64,000 bases of DNA, taken from NCBI RefSeq assembly GCF_058153355.1, contig NZ_CM177019.1, one strand, 5' to 3'. The stretch's first letter is position 1. The number at the start of each line of letters is the position of its first letter. The translations under genes and the position numbers were made by a program. This document shows, piece by piece, positions 10,968 through 18,881 of the stretch. The notes beneath the pieces were generated by a model, which worked only from the letters and a program-made list of their open reading frames with translations, did no database searches and was not told the origin of the DNA.

Positions 10968-12131
10968 GTGAGGTGTATTGTGGGAAAGGAACTGGATGAT
11001 ATCTGCACCAGCTGTCCGTATATCGATGCTGTAAAACGGCACAAACAACAGCTCGGTGCCATAGAGGAATATACACAGTGGTTAAAAAAAGAACCACGGG
11101 CATCTTATTTTTTTCTGTTCCAGCTGTATACCCGCATTCACAATACATTTTTCTCCCAAAAGCAACAACTCCCGTTCACTCCCGGTGGCACTCACTGCCC
11201 GGAACCTGATGTCACCCTTCGGGACTTAACGCTTTCCCCTGGCTACCACAGTGATTATGCCCCTCAACCCATTCCGGAGATGGACAGTTCTGCTGTTGTT
11301 CCCCCAACTAATGAAAACACCTCGCCTCCGGAAGATACTCCCGACAACACTCCGGCCGGAGGCAATACCGGACAAGCGGAAAAGACCAGAAACGCAGGAC
11401 TCACACCCATTCCTGAAAAACGTTCAGGAATGCCCCCGGAACATCTGCGGTTTGCCACGGGGTTTCCATCGCAACCGAAGATTGCCGGTCCCAGAGAAAA
11501 GCCGATGCGCACCGTGCATCCGGATAAAATCTACCGTGAAATTATATGGTTCTGCTCCAGTTACCTGCTGAAATCCGGACCAGAGGCTACGAGGACGATT
11601 ATCAACTCAGTATTCTCTGAATGGGCCAGCATAAACAATGATTACCCCTCCCCCTTTTCGTGGGTGGACAGCAGGGACAGTGAACAGTGTGACTGGTTAT
11701 GGAACGCCATGCAGGTCCGGTGTGTGGGAACCCCGCTGAATCCCCTTACCCCGGAGCAGAAATACTGGTTTGCCTGCGCCACGTTTGATAACTGGGAGGG
11801 CTGGAATGAGCAACAGGTACAGTTTTTACTGGAAAGTAATCCCAGACGGAACAGAGCGAAGTTTACGCAGGTCTCCTTCCAGGCCCCCAGGATTCAGCAT
11901 AAAGCGATTCTTCTTGATGAGCTGAAAAGTGCCCGGGAGCAACAAAAAAGGCGTGATGAACGTGCTGATGGTTCCGTCCCTCTGAAACTGTCCGGAAAAA
12001 TCCACAAACAGCTTGAAAGTATTGCCCGAAGTCGTGGTGTCCTCCCAAAAAAACTGCTGAATGAAATGATTGAGCAGGCGTACCATGATTTGGTGGCAAC
12101 CAGGCAGAACTGCCAAATCGATTCCAGATAA
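10968..12131 (+). CDS. hypothetical protein (island backbone)
   Basis: 387-aa ORF with no recognisable motif; the true start may be further downstream. Confidence 0.4.
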   Translation: MRCIVGKELDDICTSCPYIDAVKRHKQQLGAIEEYTQWLKKEPRASYFFLFQLYTRIHNTFFSQKQQLPFTPGGTHCPEPDVTLRDLTLSPGYHSDYAPQPIPEMDSSAVVPPTNENTSPPEDTPDNTPAGGNTGQAEKTRNAGLTPIPEKRSGMPPEHLRFATGFPSQPKIAGPREKPMRTVHPDKIYREIIWFCSSYLLKSGPEATRTIINSVFSEWASINNDYPSPFSWVDSRDSEQCDWLWNAMQVRCVGTPLNPLTPEQKYWFACATFDNWEGWNEQQVQFLLESNPRRNRAKFTQVSFQAPRIQHKAILLDELKSAREQQKRRDERADGSVPLKLSGKIHKQLESIARSRGVLPKKLLNEMIEQAYHDLVATRQNCQIDSR

Positions 12132-12214
12132 TTTCAGACAGATATTATTTCCGTGAATCCCCCGCCACCTTTCCGGTGCGCGGGGTTTTGTCTTTTTTCA
12201 CCGGGAATACATGT

Positions 12215-12874
12215 ATGAATCCGTCTGATGCCATTGAGGCAATTGAAAAACCGCTCTCCTCCCTGCCTTACTCACTTTCCCGTCACATCCTGGAACATCT
12301 GCGCAAACTCACCAGTCACGAACCCGTGCCTGGCATTATGGGTAAAAGCGGGGCCGGTAAATCCTCACTCTGTAATGCGCTGTTTCAGGGGGAGGTCACC
12401 CCGGTCAGTGATGTTCACGCCGGCACCCGGGAAGTGCAGCGCTTCCGTCTGAATGGCCATGGTCACAGCATGGTTATCACTGACCTGCCCGGGGTGGGCG
12501 AGAGCCGGGACAGGGATGCAGAGTATGAAGCCCTGTACCGTGACATTCTGCTCGAACTGGACCTGGTACTGTGGCTGATTAAAGCCGATGACCGTGCCCT
12601 GTCTGTGGATGAGTATTTCTGGCGACACATCCTGCACCGGGGACATCAGCGGGTACTGTTTGTGGTGATGCAGGCCGATAAAACGGAGCCCTGCCATGAA
12701 TGGGATATGGCCGGTATTCAGCCTTCTCCCGCAGAGGCACAGAACATTCGCGAAAAAACGGAGGCGGTATTCCGTCTGTTCCGGCCCGTACATCGGGTTG
12801 TTGCCGTATCGGCCCGCACCGGCTGGGAACTGAACCCGGTGGTGATGTACCAGGCTGTTGTTACAGATTTTTAA
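12215..12874 (+). CDS. yeeP: YeeP/YfjP/YkfA-family small GTPase (50S ribosome-binding GTPase-like)
   Basis: G1 motif GIMGKSGAGKSS and G3 motif DLPG; backbone gene of CP4-type elements; may be C-terminally shorter than YfjP. Confidence 0.65.
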   Translation: MNPSDAIEAIEKPLSSLPYSLSRHILEHLRKLTSHEPVPGIMGKSGAGKSSLCNALFQGEVTPVSDVHAGTREVQRFRLNGHGHSMVITDLPGVGESRDRDAEYEALYRDILLELDLVLWLIKADDRALSVDEYFWRHILHRGHQRVLFVVMQADKTEPCHEWDMAGIQPSPAEAQNIREKTEAVFRLFRPVHRVVAVSARTGWELNPVVMYQAVVTDF

Positions 12875-13050
12875 CTCCATGAAAACACTATGCAAACGCA
12901 GCCATACCCGGGTTGTCCCCTTGCGTTGTGTTTCTCAAGTTAATAGAATACATCAATCGTTACTATCATATCGATCGTTATAAACAATCGTTTGTAGTAA
13001 ATGACCTCCTCCGTGGTTGTCATGAAAATGCGTCTTAGGAAGGTTAAATA

Positions 13051-15447
13051 ATGCACGAAAAGAACATCGCCCTGCTTTGTGATGAAGCCGACCGACTTTT
13101 GCAACTGAACATTAATCTGCTCCGGCAAATGGTTGAGGAGCCAGATGTGTTATCTGACAGTAAGAACGAAAACAGACTGCTTTTTGATAAACAGAAAGCA
13201 CTGAAAAGAATTGAGGAGCTGGAGGGCGAACAAATCAAAACCGCCCGCAGGGAGATGGTGCTGGCTGTTGTCGGCACGATGAAAGCAGGCAAATCAACCA
13301 CCATCAACGCCATTGTGGGGCAGGAAATTCTGCCTAACCGTAACCGCCCCATGACCTCTGTACCGACGCTCATCCGCCACGTTCCCGGAAAAACTGAGCC
13401 GGTTCTCCATCTGGAACATATTCAGCCTGTCCGCAATTTATTAATCACACTGCAGGAAAAACTCGCCACCCCGGCAGGACAGCAGGTCGCACAGACCCTG
13501 CAGCAAACCGGGGATACCCGCGAACTGCTGGATATTCTGACGGATGATGGCTGGCTCAAAAATGAATACCACGGGGAGGAGGAAATCTTTACCGGACTGG
13601 CATCGTTAAACGATCTGGTTCGTCTTGCTGCGGCAATGGGGACTGAATTTCCTTTTGATGAATACGCAGAAGTGCAGAAACTGCCGGTGATCGACGTGGA
13701 ATTCAGCCATCTGGTGGGGATGGATGCATGCCAGGGAACACTCACACTGCTGGATACCCCCGGCCCTAATGAGGCCGGACAACCGCAGATGGAAGTGATG
13801 ATGCGGGATCAACTGCAGAAAGCCTCTGCGGTTCTGGCTGTGATGGATTACACCCAGATGAACTCAAAAGCGGATGAAGACGTCCGTAAAGAGCTTAATG
13901 CCATTGCTGACGTATCAGCCGGCCGCCTGTTTGTACTGGTCAATAAATTTGATGAGAAAGACCGCAATGGCGATGGGGCAGATGCCGTACGCCAGAAAGT
14001 TCCGGCAATGCTGAACAGCGATGTGCTGCCCGCCTCCCGCGTTTATCCCGGATCCTCACGCCAGGCATACCTGGCTAACCGTGCGCTTCATGAGTTACGG
14101 AAAAACGGAACCCTTCCTGTTGATGAAGCCTGGGTCGATGATTTTATCAGAGGTGCCTTCGGTTGCATGAAAAAAGAATACGTCTGTAAAGACAGTGAAC
14201 TGGCAACTGAAGGGGCGACAGACCTGTGGGAAGGCTCACTTATCGATCAACTGATAACGGAAGTCATACAGAGCTCACATTCCAGAGCTGCGGCACTGGC
14301 GGTTGACTCTGCCGCCGCAAAACTGATGCAGAATGCAGAAAATATCAGTGAATACCTGTTGTTACGCCATCAGGGGCTACAGCAAAGCATTCAGTCACTG
14401 CAGTCGCATATCACCAGCCTGCTTGCGGATATCCGGGAAATCGCGGACTGTCAGGAGCAGATGACCACTGATGTCAGAATGGCCATGGAGGAGATCGATA
14501 CTAAAACCCGGGAATTACTGACGGGGGTCTGCACCTCACTGGAAGAGGAGCTGAATGACTATTTCAGAAGCGGTAAACGCAAAGAACAGCAAATGCTGGA
14601 GGAAGAAGACGCAGAACAACGAAGGTCTCAGTCCGGATTATGGGGGAAAATTTCTCAATGGTCCGGTATCAACAACCAGGGCCGGGAGGATTACAGGAAA
14701 CGAGATTTTGCCCCGGACAGCCCCGAAATAAAATTCAGTGATCGCAGGGAAGCCCTTGAACTGATGACGCAAATCGAATCGACCGTGACCAGCCTGCACC
14801 GTGAGGCTGAAGCACAGTTCCGGCCTGAGCTGGAGAAAATCGTCAGCGGGATTGAAACAGGTTTTCGTGGCACGGCCCTGTACGCCACAGAAAACATTGC
14901 CGGTCGCATCAATGCCCGCCTGGAGGATGAGGGCTTTACCGTAAAAATCAGTTTTCCGGCAGTCAGCCAGTTACAGACCCGGCTCGCGGTAAAAATAAAT
15001 CTGAGTGCGCTTATGGAGGAAAGAACGGAGACCGTCACCCGTCGCCGTCGGCAGAGTGGCGTATGGGGAACCGTTTGTCGATGGTTTGGCACCAGTGACC
15101 TGGGCTGGGAAAACTATGACGAGGATGTGAGTCGCAGCGTGATCAATATCAACAAGGTCAGAGAGGAAGTTATGTCACTGACCCGGGCATATTTCGGGGA
15201 GCTGCAGGCATCCATTGAGCAGGATATTAACCAGCCCGTCCGCCAGGAAATCGATGCCTTTTTCTGCGCATTCAGGGAGAAAGTTGAACAACTGCGTAAC
15301 ACGCTGATTCAGAGCTCTGAAGATCATAAACGCGATCAGCAGGCGCAGGAACGGCTTACCGGGCGACTTCAGGCATTAAATGAAAGGGTTCCTGAGCTCA
15401 TTACTGACAGTAAGGCGCTGAGGGAAGAGCTGGAGACAATGCTGTGA
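13051..15447 (+). CDS. bacterial dynamin-like GTPase (798 aa)
   Basis: GGAAGG SD; G1 GTMKAGKST, G3 DTPG, G4 NKFD, followed by about 500 aa of helical/coiled-coil sequence. Confidence 0.8.
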   Translation: MHEKNIALLCDEADRLLQLNINLLRQMVEEPDVLSDSKNENRLLFDKQKALKRIEELEGEQIKTARREMVLAVVGTMKAGKSTTINAIVGQEILPNRNRPMTSVPTLIRHVPGKTEPVLHLEHIQPVRNLLITLQEKLATPAGQQVAQTLQQTGDTRELLDILTDDGWLKNEYHGEEEIFTGLASLNDLVRLAAAMGTEFPFDEYAEVQKLPVIDVEFSHLVGMDACQGTLTLLDTPGPNEAGQPQMEVMMRDQLQKASAVLAVMDYTQMNSKADEDVRKELNAIADVSAGRLFVLVNKFDEKDRNGDGADAVRQKVPAMLNSDVLPASRVYPGSSRQAYLANRALHELRKNGTLPVDEAWVDDFIRGAFGCMKKEYVCKDSELATEGATDLWEGSLIDQLITEVIQSSHSRAAALAVDSAAAKLMQNAENISEYLLLRHQGLQQSIQSLQSHITSLLADIREIADCQEQMTTDVRMAMEEIDTKTRELLTGVCTSLEEELNDYFRSGKRKEQQMLEEEDAEQRRSQSGLWGKISQWSGINNQGREDYRKRDFAPDSPEIKFSDRREALELMTQIESTVTSLHREAEAQFRPELEKIVSGIETGFRGTALYATENIAGRINARLEDEGFTVKISFPAVSQLQTRLAVKINLSALMEERTETVTRRRRQSGVWGTVCRWFGTSDLGWENYDEDVSRSVININKVREEVMSLTRAYFGELQASIEQDINQPVRQEIDAFFCAFREKVEQLRNTLIQSSEDHKRDQQAQERLTGRLQALNERVPELITDSKALREELETML

Positions 15448-16349
15448 CTTCACCATTTATTCAACAAATTGCTGATAACCGGGTATGTCAGGTACTCACC
15501 TGTCTTCCTGAAAAATTTGTGGTTGATTTCGCAAACGGAATCGATGTTGCACAGGAGCATATCCGCACGGCCGGAGAGAGCACGTTCTTCCGGCGTTTAA
15601 AAGAGGGGCTGACCGGCGAAGGCGCTGCACGGCAGAATGCCATCAATGCGTCGCTTGCACAGGGCGTTGAGGCGTCCCTGCGCTGGCTGACGGAGATGAC
15701 AACGTCACTTGCCACCACAAACTACGCGATTACCCGGGTAAACGACAGGGTCAGTTCACTGGTCAGTGATACAGCCAGGCTGGCGCATTATTCCGCAGAT
15801 ACGCGGGAGCAGTTACTCACCCTGGCCGATCAGGTTCACCATAAACTGAATCATCTTGAAGAAAAACTCCACCGTGTTGACCAGGTTCAGCGGGCGCAGT
15901 TACATCTTGAGCAGATATTCTCATGGTGGAGCGCCGGGCGATATGCGTCATTTTCCCCTGCCGGACGTTGTTATGTGGCACTTGAAGAGCTTCGCTGGGG
16001 CGCGTTTGGTGATGTGATACGTCAGAGCGAAACAGGCCAGGTTAACCAGCTACTGGATATTCTCAGACATAAAGCATTAACGCAGATGGCACAGGAGAGT
16101 GGCGGTAGTGCAACCGTGCGTCTGAACACTCTGGACTGGCTTGGTGGTCAGGGCCGGGAGCAGGCAGATAACGAGTGGCATGACGCGATTAACTGGCTGG
16201 GAGACTGGTGCAGTGAAGAGCAGCATCCGGTGATCTGGTCAACCACGCAGGCTGCAGAACACTTACCGGTTCGCATGCCTCGCCTCTGCTCTGCAGAACG
16301 CCTCTCTGAAAGTATGGTCGATGAAATATTTCAGAAGGGGGCTGCATGA
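15444..16349 (+). CDS. hypothetical helical protein, middle gene of the dynamin-patatin operon
   Basis: GTG start overlaps the upstream stop (GTGA) and its own stop overlaps the next ATG (ATGA); no recognisable motif. Confidence 0.55.
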   Translation: MTSPFIQQIADNRVCQVLTCLPEKFVVDFANGIDVAQEHIRTAGESTFFRRLKEGLTGEGAARQNAINASLAQGVEASLRWLTEMTTSLATTNYAITRVNDRVSSLVSDTARLAHYSADTREQLLTLADQVHHKLNHLEEKLHRVDQVQRAQLHLEQIFSWWSAGRYASFSPAGRCYVALEELRWGAFGDVIRQSETGQVNQLLDILRHKALTQMAQESGGSATVRLNTLDWLGGQGREQADNEWHDAINWLGDWCSEEQHPVIWSTTQAAEHLPVRMPRLCSAERLSESMVDEIFQKGAA

Positions 16350-17416
16350 GTACAGAAATGAAAACGGGGCTGGTGCTGTCCGGTGGCGGGGCGGTGGGCG
16401 CTTATCAGGCGGGAGTGGTTAAGGCACTGGCAGAGTGTGGTACACAGATCAGCATGGTTTCAGGGGCCAGCATTGGCGCATTCAATGGTGCCATTATCGC
16501 GGCCTCTCCCGATCTGTCAGAAGCTGCCGTACGCCTGGAGGCGCTCTGGGATCATCTGGGGAATAATCAGGTGCTGTCGGTAAACAGATTGGTTTACTTT
16601 TCATTGCTGAAAAAATTGTTCCAGGCAATGAACCTCTGCCAGATCCCCGGACGTGCAGGAGCACTGCTTACGACGCTTCTTCGCCATATATCGACAATCA
16701 ACGGGTTTGACAATCTGATGGCTCAGCCGTTGTTGTCAGATGAGCCCCTGACAGCGCTGATGGATCATTATCTTGATACTGATGCTCTGGCAGACGGGCT
16801 ACCGCTGTATGTGTCGCTGTACCCCACAGAAGGGGGCATGCAGGATATTATTGACTGCATTCGTGCTGAACTGGGTGTCGGAACCACGAAAAACGCCGTT
16901 TTTCAGCATATCCAGAGCCTGCCCCGCGGACAGCAGAAAGAGGCTCTGCTTGCGTCAGCCGCGCTGCCCCTGCTGTTCCGTCCCCGTGAGGTTCAGGGGA
17001 CAATGTTCGGTGATGGTGGTATGGGAGGATGGCGAAATATGCAGGGAAATACCCCTGTGACGCCTCTGGTCGATGCCGGATGCAATATGGTGATTGTGAC
17101 GCATCTGAGTGACGGTTCTTTATGGGATCGCCAGGCTTTTCCGGACACCACAATCCTTGAGATCCGTCCCCGGAAAAGGCTGAAATATGCAGGTGATGGT
17201 GGCAACAGCGGCGGTCTGCTCAGTTTTACATCGGCACATACCGACGCCTGGCGTCAGCAGGGCTATGAAGACACGATGCTGGCGATGGAGCATATCCGGA
17301 AACCGCTGGCAGCACGTCAGGCACTGACCCGGTCAGAGGCGGTATTGCAGAAAAGCCTGGATATAACGGAAGAGGCAGATTTGGCACTGAGAAACGCGAT
17401 GGCCCGGATTAAATAA
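16346..17416 (+). CDS. patatin-like phospholipase
   Basis: Oxyanion-hole motif SGGGAVGAYQAG, nucleophile elbow GASIG (GxSxG) and catalytic Asp in FGDGG; translationally coupled to the upstream gene. Confidence 0.8.
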   Translation: MSTEMKTGLVLSGGGAVGAYQAGVVKALAECGTQISMVSGASIGAFNGAIIAASPDLSEAAVRLEALWDHLGNNQVLSVNRLVYFSLLKKLFQAMNLCQIPGRAGALLTTLLRHISTINGFDNLMAQPLLSDEPLTALMDHYLDTDALADGLPLYVSLYPTEGGMQDIIDCIRAELGVGTTKNAVFQHIQSLPRGQQKEALLASAALPLLFRPREVQGTMFGDGGMGGWRNMQGNTPVTPLVDAGCNMVIVTHLSDGSLWDRQAFPDTTILEIRPRKRLKYAGDGGNSGGLLSFTSAHTDAWRQQGYEDTMLAMEHIRKPLAARQALTRSEAVLQKSLDITEEADLALRNAMARIK

Positions 17417-17746
17417 AGACGCCCCAAAGAAACGCCACCGCCTGTGGTGGTGTTTTTCCTGTCTGGTGTTATTGAAAATATTTTCATATATATATTACCT
17501 GAGAGAAAGTTTTACCCCTCACCTGTCAATTCACTCACTGGAAATTTAATTATGAAATTACCTGTAAAGTTATTAATGAGCCTTATATCTCTGGTCAGCG
17601 TTATTGCACGTGCCGGGGAATATAAAAATTACAGCCGGGATGAAATAAAATACTGGCGATATACATCATACAAGGGGGGGAAACTTCCGGAAGGTTTCAC
17701 TGATGAGAAATTTTCCAGCGCCATTTACAACGGAAGAATATTTACA

Positions 17747-18235
17747 ATGAAACGTTTACATACCCTTATGTTATTTCTGGCGGTTCTGTTCACGGGCTTT
17801 AACTTTAACGCAGAAGCGGCTACCGTAAAACAAGCTCTTAGTTGTAACCCGGAAGCCTGGGCTGAACAACCTGGAGCGTGTCCATCAACGTACGAGTTGT
17901 ACGAAGGTGACGCTACCTACAAAGCCGCTATCGACAAAGCATTAAAACCGGTCGGACTGAGCGGCATGTTCGGTAAAGGCGGCTATATGGATGGCCCTGG
18001 TGGAGGTATCACGCCAGTAAACATTAACGGTACAGTCTGGTTCCAGGGCGACGGTTGCAAAGCCAATACCTGCGGCTGGGACTTTATCGTAACACTCTAT
18101 AACCCAAAAACCCATGAAGTTGTTGGCTACCGTTACTTTGGTTTAGATGACCCGGCCTACCTGGTTTGGTTCGGTGAAATTGGCGTGCATGAATTCGCGT
18201 ATCTGGTGAAAAACTACGTAGCTGCGGTTAACTAA
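17747..18235 (+). CDS. secreted protein, possibly Ivy-like (inhibitor of vertebrate lysozyme family)
   Basis: Signal peptide MKRLHTLMLFLAVLFTGFNFNAEA; CKANTCG motif resembles the Ivy CKPHDCG loop; AT-rich codon usage. N-terminal extension in the track ORF rejected. Confidence 0.45.
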   Translation: MKRLHTLMLFLAVLFTGFNFNAEAATVKQALSCNPEAWAEQPGACPSTYELYEGDATYKAAIDKALKPVGLSGMFGKGGYMDGPGGGITPVNINGTVWFQGDGCKANTCGWDFIVTLYNPKTHEVVGYRYFGLDDPAYLVWFGEIGVHEFAYLVKNYVAAVN

Positions 18236-18250
18236 TTTAAGGAGTCTATC

Positions 18251-18661
18251 ATGAAAACTTTTATCAAAACTTTACTCGTTGCTGTAACTATTCTGTTCTC
18301 TGTCTTCGCTACTGCGAAACAAGTAAAACTGCCAAATAACATCAAATACGTTAATACTACAGAAGCGTTTTCCTGTACCGAAATTGACGGTATGAATTGC
18401 CAGACAAAGAATCAGTTCAACTATAAAGATAACAGCTATGTTTTCGTGCTTGAACGTGGTGGTGCCTGGTGCTACGACTACACTGTCTCGGTAGTTAACC
18501 TGAAAACCGGGAAAGCACAAATGATTGAATACGGGGACAATCAACTGTGCTCAGGTAGCAACAAACCGTTCTTCGAAATCAAAAATGGCGTACCGACGGT
18601 AGGAGTCATCGACACATCCGGAAAACCTGTCGTTGTAGCCCAGGACAAACTTAAAATCTAA
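18251..18661 (+). CDS. small secreted hypothetical protein
   Basis: Strong SD TAAGGAG; signal peptide; four Cys; AT-rich. Confidence 0.55.
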   Translation: MKTFIKTLLVAVTILFSVFATAKQVKLPNNIKYVNTTEAFSCTEIDGMNCQTKNQFNYKDNSYVFVLERGGAWCYDYTVSVVNLKTGKAQMIEYGDNQLCSGSNKPFFEIKNGVPTVGVIDTSGKPVVVAQDKLKI

Positions 18662-18881
18662 GGAGTAAACCATGCGTTTCTCTGCACATTATTAATATCA
18701 AAGGTAAATACAGCCCCAGCCATTGTTACCGGAAAGCCGCTTAATGCGTGGCTCGCCAGTGAAAGGCCTCTCAGACAATAAACCTTATTCATTTCACCCG
18801 TCAGGCCGCGTCTTCTCCGGGAGACGCGGCTTTTTTCATTTATTGCACCAGTAAATCTTAACCACCGATAAGGAGCAAAGT

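Follow-up and report, generated by a model that had tools for sequence, protein, structure and literature searches.

A three-gene island operon joins an RdcA/RdcB-type GTPase pair to a patatin-like phospholipase: a candidate phage-defence system

The 64,000-nucleotide stretch of contig NZ_CM177019.1 (NCBI RefSeq assembly GCF_058153355.1) analyzed here, hereafter referred to as the window, contains a single copy of a three-gene operon encoding a dynamin-like GTPase (gene 1), a partner protein of the RdcB/YjcZ family (gene 2), and a patatin-like phospholipase (gene 3), collectively termed the trio (Table 1). Consecutive genes share four nucleotides, with CTGTGA and GCATGA sequences yielding a GTGA overlap at 15444..15447 and an ATGA overlap at 16346..16349, and a Shine-Dalgarno-like purine run is found 6–10 nt upstream of every start codon. 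Almost all of the 32 homologous loci of other genera likewise have junctions of −1, −4, or −8 nt, and this recurrence of the same junction lengths indicates that the gene overlaps are not due to chance. The first-pass annotation of the window had described three overlapping open reading frames (ORFs) that constitute a tightly coupled unit carried as island cargo, and both elements of this description are borne out: the ORFs and their 4-nt overlaps are recovered as annotated, and the operon lies in an island at the CP4-44 site, beside tmaR, yeeA, and sbmC.

Table 1. Position of the trio genes, their motifs, and surrounding elements in the window.
Feature	Coordinates	Strand	Basis or distribution
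Gene 1, 798-aa dynamin-like GTPase, paralogue of RdcA/CrfC/YjdA	13051..15447	+	ORF call, Pfam, BLASTP, Foldseek
Gene 2, 301-aa RdcB/YjcZ-family partner; GTG start overlaps the gene 1 stop	15444..16349	+	Pfam, BLASTP
Gene 3, 356-aa patatin-like phospholipase with family-specific C-terminal extension (residues ~246-356)	16346..17416	+	Pfam, orthologue alignment
G1/P-loop GTMKAGKST of gene 1, residues 75-83; K81 corresponds to RdcA K82	13273..13299	+	Invariant in the trio and RdcA clades
Trio-specific stalk insertion of gene 1, residues ~515-560	14593..14730	+	In all trio dynamins, not in the RdcA clade
Trp-rich motif RRRRQSGVWGTVCRWFGTSDLGWENY of gene 1, residues 664-688, inside predicted beta-hairpin	15040..15114	+	
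Patatin nucleophile motif G-A-S42-I-G	16463..16477	+	G40, A41, S42, and G44 at least 95% conserved
Patatin catalytic Asp motif D223-G-G	17012..17020	+	At least 95% conserved
Sigma-70-like promoter candidate TTAATA-18-TATCAT	12940..12969	+	Consensus scan; AT-rich intergenic region 5' of gene 1
Three ATCGTT copies (12956, 12974, 12987), possible operator	12956..12992	+	Local to the island arrangement
Terminator-like hairpin with T-run, 17 nt past the patatin stop codon	17433..17452	+	Consensus scan, sequence
ORF, 227 aa, GC 0.46, two signal-like hydrophobic segments; between the patatin gene and DUF932	17552..18235		
ORF, 136 aa, GC 0.41, signal-peptide-like N-terminus as in the 227-aa ORF	18251..18661		
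Strong terminator 3' of the 227-aa and 136-aa ORFs	18803..18832		
YeeP-like GTPase, frameshifted pseudogene (ORF 12176..12874)	12215..12844		
Conserved hypothetical protein, 383 aa, 5' of the GTPase pseudogene	10980..12128		

The product of gene 1 matches the Pfam Dynamin_N model (1.6e-17) and displays the dynamin-type GTPase motifs reported at first pass, namely G75-T-M-K-A-G-K81-S-T (G1), D235-T-P-G (G3), and N298-K-F-D (G4), as well as T102 (G2), all of which are invariant across trio orthologues. It shares 33% identity with the RdcA protein of K-12 over 744 aa, in an alignment running from residue 57 to the C-terminus (BLASTP, E 9e-121), and its residues 1–797 match the NCBIfam CrfC model NF007368 (1.2e-166) with a score of 556 bits. 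Because this score falls under the equivalog cutoff of 1146, gene 1 is a paralogue, and not an orthologue, of RdcA/CrfC. Residues K81 and T102 are the conserved equivalents of RdcA K82 and T103. The clamp-binding motif of CrfC (41-QLALP), in which Gln41 is essential (PMC6374313), is not kept, the aligned residues of gene 1 (NRLLF) containing no Gln. The AlphaFold2 model of gene 1, built on an alignment with 38 homologues (predicted local distance difference test, pLDDT, 79; predicted template modelling score, pTM, 0.64), presents a G domain followed by very long helices, the two longest spanning residues 447–527 and 565–625. By sequence, BDLP alone is recovered among solved relatives, through similarity confined to the P-loop. 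A Foldseek search with the model returns BDLP (2J69) as the top match (7.7e-13), followed by SynDLP, IniA, and the Campylobacter DLP pair, all with a probability of 1.00; the E values of the best matches range from 7.7e-13 to 2e-10, and mitofusins are also present among the full-length neighbours. The match to full-length bacterial dynamin-like proteins and mitofusins hence identifies gene 1 as a genuine dynamin-like protein.

The stalk insertion seen in all trio dynamins begins, in the window protein, with charged residues that pass from acidic to basic, to which are added a short hydrophobic patch (GLWGKISQW) and a DFAPxxP motif, and most orthologues present a basic run and DFDPxxP, giving an overall DF(D/A)PxxP motif. 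In the AlphaFold2 model, the insertion forms a low-confidence loop that joins the two longest helices, and it would thus appear to be placed where other dynamin-like proteins have a membrane- or partner-binding tip. The Trp-rich motif lies in a predicted hairpin encompassing residues 655–699 of the model, and is sharply conserved in trio dynamins and degenerate in RdcA.

Gene 2 matches the YjcZ family (PF13990, 4.4e-70), shows 30% identity to RdcB over 281 aa (E 2e-37), and is designated 'diguanylate cyclase regulator RdcB family protein' in RefSeq. The RdcB family is small, accounting for 486 clusters (50% identity) in a set of 1.84 billion representative proteins, and a search by sequence found no solved relatives for it. 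Gene 3, which matches the Patatin family (PF01734, 7.4e-24), encodes a patatin phospholipase whose Ser-Asp dyad is intact, and the three patatin catalytic motifs attributed to it at first pass (GGGxxG, GxSxG, and DGG) are readily located at G13-G-G-A-V-G, G40-A-S42-I-G, and D223-G-G. In an alignment of 26 orthologues, these motifs are at least 95% conserved as G13-G-G-A-x-G, G40-A-S42-x-G, and D223-G-G. The nearest solved patatins are PlpD, VipD, and ExoU, with similarity encompassing only the first ~65 residues, and full-length homologues with 46–66% identity are found in Pectobacterium, Yersinia, Erwinia, Plesiomonas, Providencia, Vibrio, and Pseudomonas. Truncated variants of the patatin gene are frequent in E. 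coli.

Co-occurrence of the three genes beyond the window, which the first-pass annotation had left to a survey of other genomes, was assessed by using an RdcB-family alignment to scan a single genome of each GTDB species, which yielded 79 loci, and by a tblastn census. In the trio clade, a patatin gene lies directly 3' of the RdcB-like gene in all of the loci (26/26), with the dynamin gene 5' of the latter wherever the contig extends far enough. In the core RdcB clade, which comprises 53 loci, all of them in the Enterobacteriaceae, a patatin gene is found within 7 kb in none (0/53). The pairwise identities of the three trio proteins correlate with each other (r = 0.84–0.87), a value that was reached in 0 of 2000 Mantel permutations, indicating that the three genes diverge jointly as one unit. 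The same trio is embedded among other flanking genes in P. fluorescens, V. vulnificus, Pectobacterium, and Plesiomonas. The trio is hence a conserved, co-inherited, and translationally coupled module whose components are always linked. Its hosts include Escherichia albertii, Pantoea, Erwinia, Budvicia, Serratia, many Pseudomonas, Marinospirillum, Allochromatium, and Thiodictyon, as well as several Betaproteobacteria (Macromonas, Aquaspirillum, Paenacidovorax, Gallionella, Yanghanlia, and a Comamonadaceae strain). A metagenome-assembled genome (MAG) assigned to the Syntrophomonadaceae, in the Firmicutes, shares its tblastn matches with a Gammaproteobacteria MAG of similar sample code (L024 versus L025); the Firmicutes locus is probably mis-binned and therefore not countable as an occurrence beyond the Proteobacteria.

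On sequence grounds, the closest known system is the RdcA/RdcB pair (CrfC/YjdA-YjcZ), and not Eleos, the dynamin-based system to which the operon had initially been likened. RdcA is a soluble dynamin-like GTPase that oligomerizes and binds RdcB (Pfiffer et al., PMC6510439). In its nucleotide-free state, it docks on the MASE1 domain of DgcE and activates this diguanylate cyclase; GTP is inhibitory, and a K82A variant remains functional, whereas T103D is dead (PMC6510439). No transmembrane segments are predicted in any of the three trio proteins (maximum Kyte-Doolittle score, KD19, of 1.16 for the dynamin), and this, together with the soluble nature of its relative RdcA, lends no support to the earlier designation of gene 1 as a membrane-remodelling GTPase. 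In K-12, rdcA and rdcB constitute a two-gene operon with a 4-nt overlap, located between yjdM and proP. The likeness between both systems involves full-length homology of genes 1 and 2, gene order, the 4-nt overlap, the invariance of the G1–G4 motifs, and the presence of an overlapping PF13990 partner directly 3' of the GTPase gene, with the −4 nt junction of the trio also seen in 53 core loci. The trio differs, however, in the addition of a patatin gene (26/26 loci versus 0/53) to what in the core genome is a two-gene pair with no co-encoded effector, and in its location on mobile islands and plasmids, as opposed to the conserved yjdM-rdcAB-proP locus. It also differs in the ~40–60-aa stalk insertion, the stronger Trp-rich motif, and the missing clamp-motif Gln of its dynamin, and in a far wider range, spanning Gamma- and Betaproteobacteria.

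A PADLOC v2 analysis, among the checks foreseen at first pass, places the trio in no named system, returning a LeoBC match (8.6e-5) restricted to residues 29–89 and a match to the CBASS phospholipase effector (1e-4) restricted to the N-terminus. Eleos has in common with the trio a dynamin-like GTPase core, an island location, and a proposed anti-phage role, but it uses two or three dynamins where the trio has one, and it contains neither an RdcB-family partner nor a patatin. With no LeoA match, and with the LeoBC match confined to the P-loop region, membership in Eleos can be ruled out. The CapV patatin, which acts as the killing effector of CBASS, resembles gene 3 in its patatin fold, its GGGxxG, GxSxG, and DGG motifs, and its presumed killing function. 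The trio encodes, on the other hand, neither a CD-NTase nor any other generator of a nucleotide signal, gene 3 possesses its own family-specific C-terminal domain, and the CapV match spans only the N-terminal ~65 residues, with 18 bits against a cutoff of 200 in the NCBIfam model; a CBASS-type effector is thus ruled out as well. A conceptual precedent is provided by Legionella VipD, a patatin that is switched on by binding the GTPase Rab5 (PDB 4KYI), and hence a lipase that becomes active only upon binding by a GTPase of defined nucleotide state. VipD is, however, a secreted protein that engages a small GTPase of the host, whereas the GTPase of the trio is dynamin-like and co-encoded, and the similarity between both patatins involves ~60 N-terminal residues. 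Lastly, gene 1 shares with BDLP, SynDLP, IniA, and DynA a predicted architecture of G domain and long helical neck/trunk hairpins, but its sequence similarity to them is restricted to the P-loop, and it is accompanied by RdcB-like and patatin partners.

The trio is widespread and mobile. Of 5426 complete E. coli genomes, 2444 (about 45%) harbour 80% or more of the region, and a single genome can have it at as many as five places. In other E. coli strains, the order of genes in the slot is YeeP-like GTPase, Ag43-like autotransporter, trio, and DUF932, as in loci L094 and L097 (2513..11071), which feature a 949-aa Ag43-like autotransporter, a trio dynamin 91% identical to that of the window, and DUF932 directly 3'. 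The coexistence of the Ag43-like gene and the trio in these strains implies that the trio shares the slot with flu and does not replace it. The proposal that the operon occupies the cargo slot holding flu in the CP4-44 element of K-12 is hence correct as to the slot, but not as a simple replacement of flu. The trio is also found on 44 plasmid records, and Enterobacter, Klebsiella, and E. coli carry a variant with 62% identity on plasmids of the IncF and other types. Integrases, a relaxase, and insertion sequence (IS) elements are seen near trio loci, and searches of 50,697 phage records and of IMG/VR contigs detect no RdcB-family genes: the trio travels on islands and plasmids, not on phages. 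In the Enterobacter hormaechei plasmid pRHBSTW-00114_3 (locus L008, 6009..9004), an IS1 copy is located 66 bp 5' of the dynamin ORF, which is devoid of ~37 N-terminal residues, and plasmid copies of the trio may be 5'-truncated or driven from the IS.

In other bacteria, the trio is often found next to anti-phage genes. BREX genes are found in its flanks in Pantoea eucrina (BrxC, 1385 bits) and V. vulnificus (PglZ/BrxL), as is a type III restriction-modification methyltransferase in E. albertii (948 bits), and the M and S subunits of a type I restriction-modification system are encoded 179 bp 3' of it in P. putida. In Erwinia sp. S63 (L041, 9004..10784), a complete JukAB system, which defends against jumbo phages, starts 40 bp past the patatin stop codon (JukA, 2.4e-58; JukB, 4.2e-112), and JukA-like genes or fragments are located 3' of the patatin gene in three more loci (L011, L021, and L003). 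Matches to a DRT-type reverse transcriptase and to mad3/mad8 (MADS) are also found among the flanks, and WYL/BrxR-type regulators adjoin the trio in about 10 of 28 loci. Overall, of 28 non-redundant loci, at least 11 have known defence genes within 7 kb, a count that rises to 17 when WYL regulators are included. Matches to PADLOC (E <= 1e-5) are seen for 10 of 20 large flank ORFs of trio loci versus 0 of 10 large flank ORFs of core RdcAB loci (p ~0.006, hypergeometric estimate), a difference that must be considered indicative and not a formal defence score, because the scan covered only a subset of the flank ORFs, selected by size.

Full-text searches returned a single paper describing this operon type, an RNA-seq study that refers to putative dynamin phage-defence systems (PMC12922286; BMC Genomics 2026). 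The authors of that study note ~30% identity to the core RdcAB, find no known link between phospholipases and bacterial dynamins, describe five co-induced genes on one island, and locate the operon on pathogenicity-type islands, such as PAI-CFT073-aspV, as well as in commensal E. coli (PMC12922286). A second paper simply lists the trio genes on an O118 island, and neither a functional test nor a system name for the trio was found in the full-text literature searched, which does not extend to subscription journals. The first-pass assessment of the operon as an undescribed combination therefore requires some nuance, since no named system corresponds to it in PADLOC v2 or in the searchable literature, but the trio itself was noted in the 2026 paper. 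In a study of resistance evolution in E. coli ATCC 25922 (PMC7696260), the reported variants include 122 in 'crfC', 75 in the patatin gene 'rssA', 10 in 'yeeP', and 3 in 'yjcZ'. Such counts may stem from reads mis-mapped among paralogous island copies of the trio, and would then not represent real mutations.

The trio is thus best seen as a GTPase pair of the RdcA/RdcB type to which a patatin effector has been added; it has been noticed once in print and constitutes a strong candidate defence system. Since it often adjoins anti-phage genes in other bacteria, it is probably a phage-defence system. A more specific proposal, for which we judge the chances to be evenly balanced, is that the phospholipase of this mobile module is under the control of its GTPase switch, and that the module acts as an anti-phage abortive-infection system by killing infected cells. 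By analogy with RdcA/RdcB (PMC6510439), the GTPase would oligomerize and bind the RdcB-like protein, and its nucleotide state would decide target engagement, GTP being inhibitory and the nucleotide-free form active in RdcA. The target in the trio would be the co-encoded patatin, instead of DgcE. Phage infection might then switch the complex, for instance by lowering the GTP pool or by disturbing the membrane or envelope, and the stalk insertion and the Trp-rich hairpin could bring the complex to the membrane or dock the lipase. Once released or activated, the lipase would degrade inner-membrane phospholipids, and the cell would die before phage release.

Several observations weigh against this proposal. 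No known defence system adjoins the trio in the island of the window, the neighbourhood scan was not genome-wide, and PADLOC v2 has no model for the trio. Despite its ~45% prevalence, the trio is absent among checkable E. coli-derived systems, and the DefensePredictor preprint mentions no GTPase, patatin, or YjcZ system. Furthermore, the only characterized homologues, RdcA and RdcB, are signalling, not immune, proteins (PMC6510439), and the interaction between GTPase and patatin is putative. The induction documented in lysogens is uncoupled from the lysis-lysogeny decision and partly affected by multi-mapping reads (PMC12922286). The defence role advanced at first pass does find real support in the gene neighbourhoods.

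Other interpretations of the trio have to accommodate the same evidence. The structural kinship of gene 1 with BDLP, SynDLP, IniA, and the Campylobacter DLP pair, and the presence of a basic run and hydrophobic patch in the loop of its helix hairpin, as well as of a Trp-rich hairpin, would fit a membrane-stress or maintenance module akin to B. subtilis DynA or mycobacterial IniA, in which the dynamin detects or stabilizes damaged membrane, the patatin remodels or removes damaged phospholipids, and any effect on phage is incidental. DynA, for instance, responds to pore-forming agents besides phage (cited in PMC12922286). A repair function would nonetheless be expected in core genomes, whereas the trio is patchy, mobile, multi-copy, and enriched beside defence genes; RdcA does not act on membranes (PMC6510439; PMC6374313), and no transmembrane or clear amphipathic segment is apparent in the trio proteins, making this an unlikely explanation. 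The full-length homology to RdcA/RdcB, the identical overlapping arrangement of the pair, and the conservation of K82 and T103, needed for RdcA function, could instead point to a signalling role, in which a membrane signalling protein (DgcE/MASE1 or another) serves as the docking site of the GTPase pair, which tunes cyclic di-GMP levels or biofilm formation, with the patatin modulating the process or making a lipid signal. Yet identity is just 30–33%, the CrfC equivalog score is under half of its cutoff, and the trio extends to Pseudomonas, Vibrio, and Betaproteobacteria, among which no core RdcAB pair was found. The invariable linkage of the patatin and the island and defence context further disfavour a host signalling role, and we consider it quite improbable.

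Little credence can be given, too, to the notion of the trio as an addiction or inter-element conflict module, with a patatin toxin checked by the GTPase pair that stabilizes the island or plasmid, or excludes competing elements, and is not aimed at lytic phages. Islands bearing the trio are rich in toxin-antitoxin (CbtA/CbeA) and anti-restriction genes, the trio is found on conjugative or mobilizable plasmids, and its genes are as tightly coupled as those of toxin-antitoxin operons, but the regulator differs from simple antitoxins in its large size (1100 aa across two proteins) and in its conserved GTPase cycle, and the truncated patatin variants common in E. coli would be hard to tolerate in an addictive system. 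This interpretation overlaps mechanistically with that of a defence system, and both are hard to separate by sequence alone. Highly improbable, in turn, is a role in virulence, either through a secreted or injected lipase similar to ExoU, VipD, or PlpD, or through dynamin-driven vesicle release, as proposed for LeoABC in enterotoxigenic E. coli. These three patatins are the nearest solved relatives of gene 3, and the trio is found on pathogenicity-type islands such as PAI-CFT073-aspV; the similarity, however, does not extend past the first ~65 residues, neither a signal peptide nor an autotransporter domain is seen, no secretion system accompanies the trio consistently, and the trio is also present in commensal E. 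coli, environmental Pseudomonas, Gallionella, Allochromatium, and others.

If the trio is indeed a defence system, a function would be gained for a very common accessory operon of E. coli (~45% of complete genomes, often in multiple copies), and the system would rely on a dynamin-like GTPase sensor of known logic, with GTP inhibitory and the nucleotide-free form active, as in RdcA. The link to RdcA/RdcB would then represent an exchange between immune modules and housekeeping second-messenger signalling. A bolder and somewhat unlikely scenario is that the trio represents a new class of abortive infection, in which a dynamin reads the GTP or membrane state and licenses a lipase, and that RdcA/RdcB are its domesticated descendants, having lost the lipase and become rewired onto DgcE. 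In a neighbour-joining (NJ) tree of dynamins, RdcA nests beside the trio dynamins of Budvicia, Serratia, and Vibrio, whereas the RdcB tree midpoint-roots between both groups; the midpoint-rooted NJ trees thus disagree on the direction of evolution between trio and pair. On a practical note, labels such as 'RdcB family', 'crfC', and 'rssA', found in RefSeq and COG-style annotations, can mislead about the island copies.

The region upstream of gene 1 has a GC content of 0.34–0.40, compared to 0.53 for the operon, and harbours a sigma-70-like site that overlaps the first of three ATCGTT repeats. This site is merely a candidate promoter, because the scan yields no more promoter-like sites than it does on shuffled sequence. 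With 42 ATCGTT copies on both strands of the window, roughly 0.01 triplets within 37 bp would be expected. The upstream region is otherwise kept only in E. albertii, where the repeats take the form CGATCG(T/C)T; they are absent from other genera and from the E. coli copy 3' of an Ag43-like gene, as illustrated by L094 and L097, whose short intergenic region 5' of the dynamin gene has no ATCGTT repeats. This restricted distribution rules out ATCGTT as a conserved operator of the system, and the repeats must hence be seen as a local feature outside the module. The control region suggested at first pass is thus upheld as an AT-rich stretch with three ATCGTT repeats, but not as a conserved part of the system.

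The placement of the operon between the YeeP-like GTPase gene and DUF932 is correct overall, but two further ORFs intervene on the DUF932 side, and the YeeP-like gene is a pseudogene, matching only residues 1–210 of the 290-aa protein that is intact in other strains. The YeeP-like GTPase is also annotated as a pseudogene by RefSeq in strain 55989. The two intervening ORFs, of 227 and 136 aa, have no matches in Pfam, NCBIfam, or PADLOC, and an initial consideration of the former as Ivy-like, based on a CKANTC motif, was dropped for this reason. The terminator-like hairpin that follows the patatin gene, the lower GC of these ORFs, and their absence from other trio contexts, including those in which the trio follows an Ag43-like gene, make them unlikely members of the operon. 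They may be among the five co-induced island genes of the RNA-seq study (PMC12922286). On the other side of the trio, the 383-aa conserved hypothetical protein encoded 5' of the GTPase pseudogene has no match in PADLOC or NCBIfam, is 99.7% identical in other strains, and appears to belong to the island backbone.

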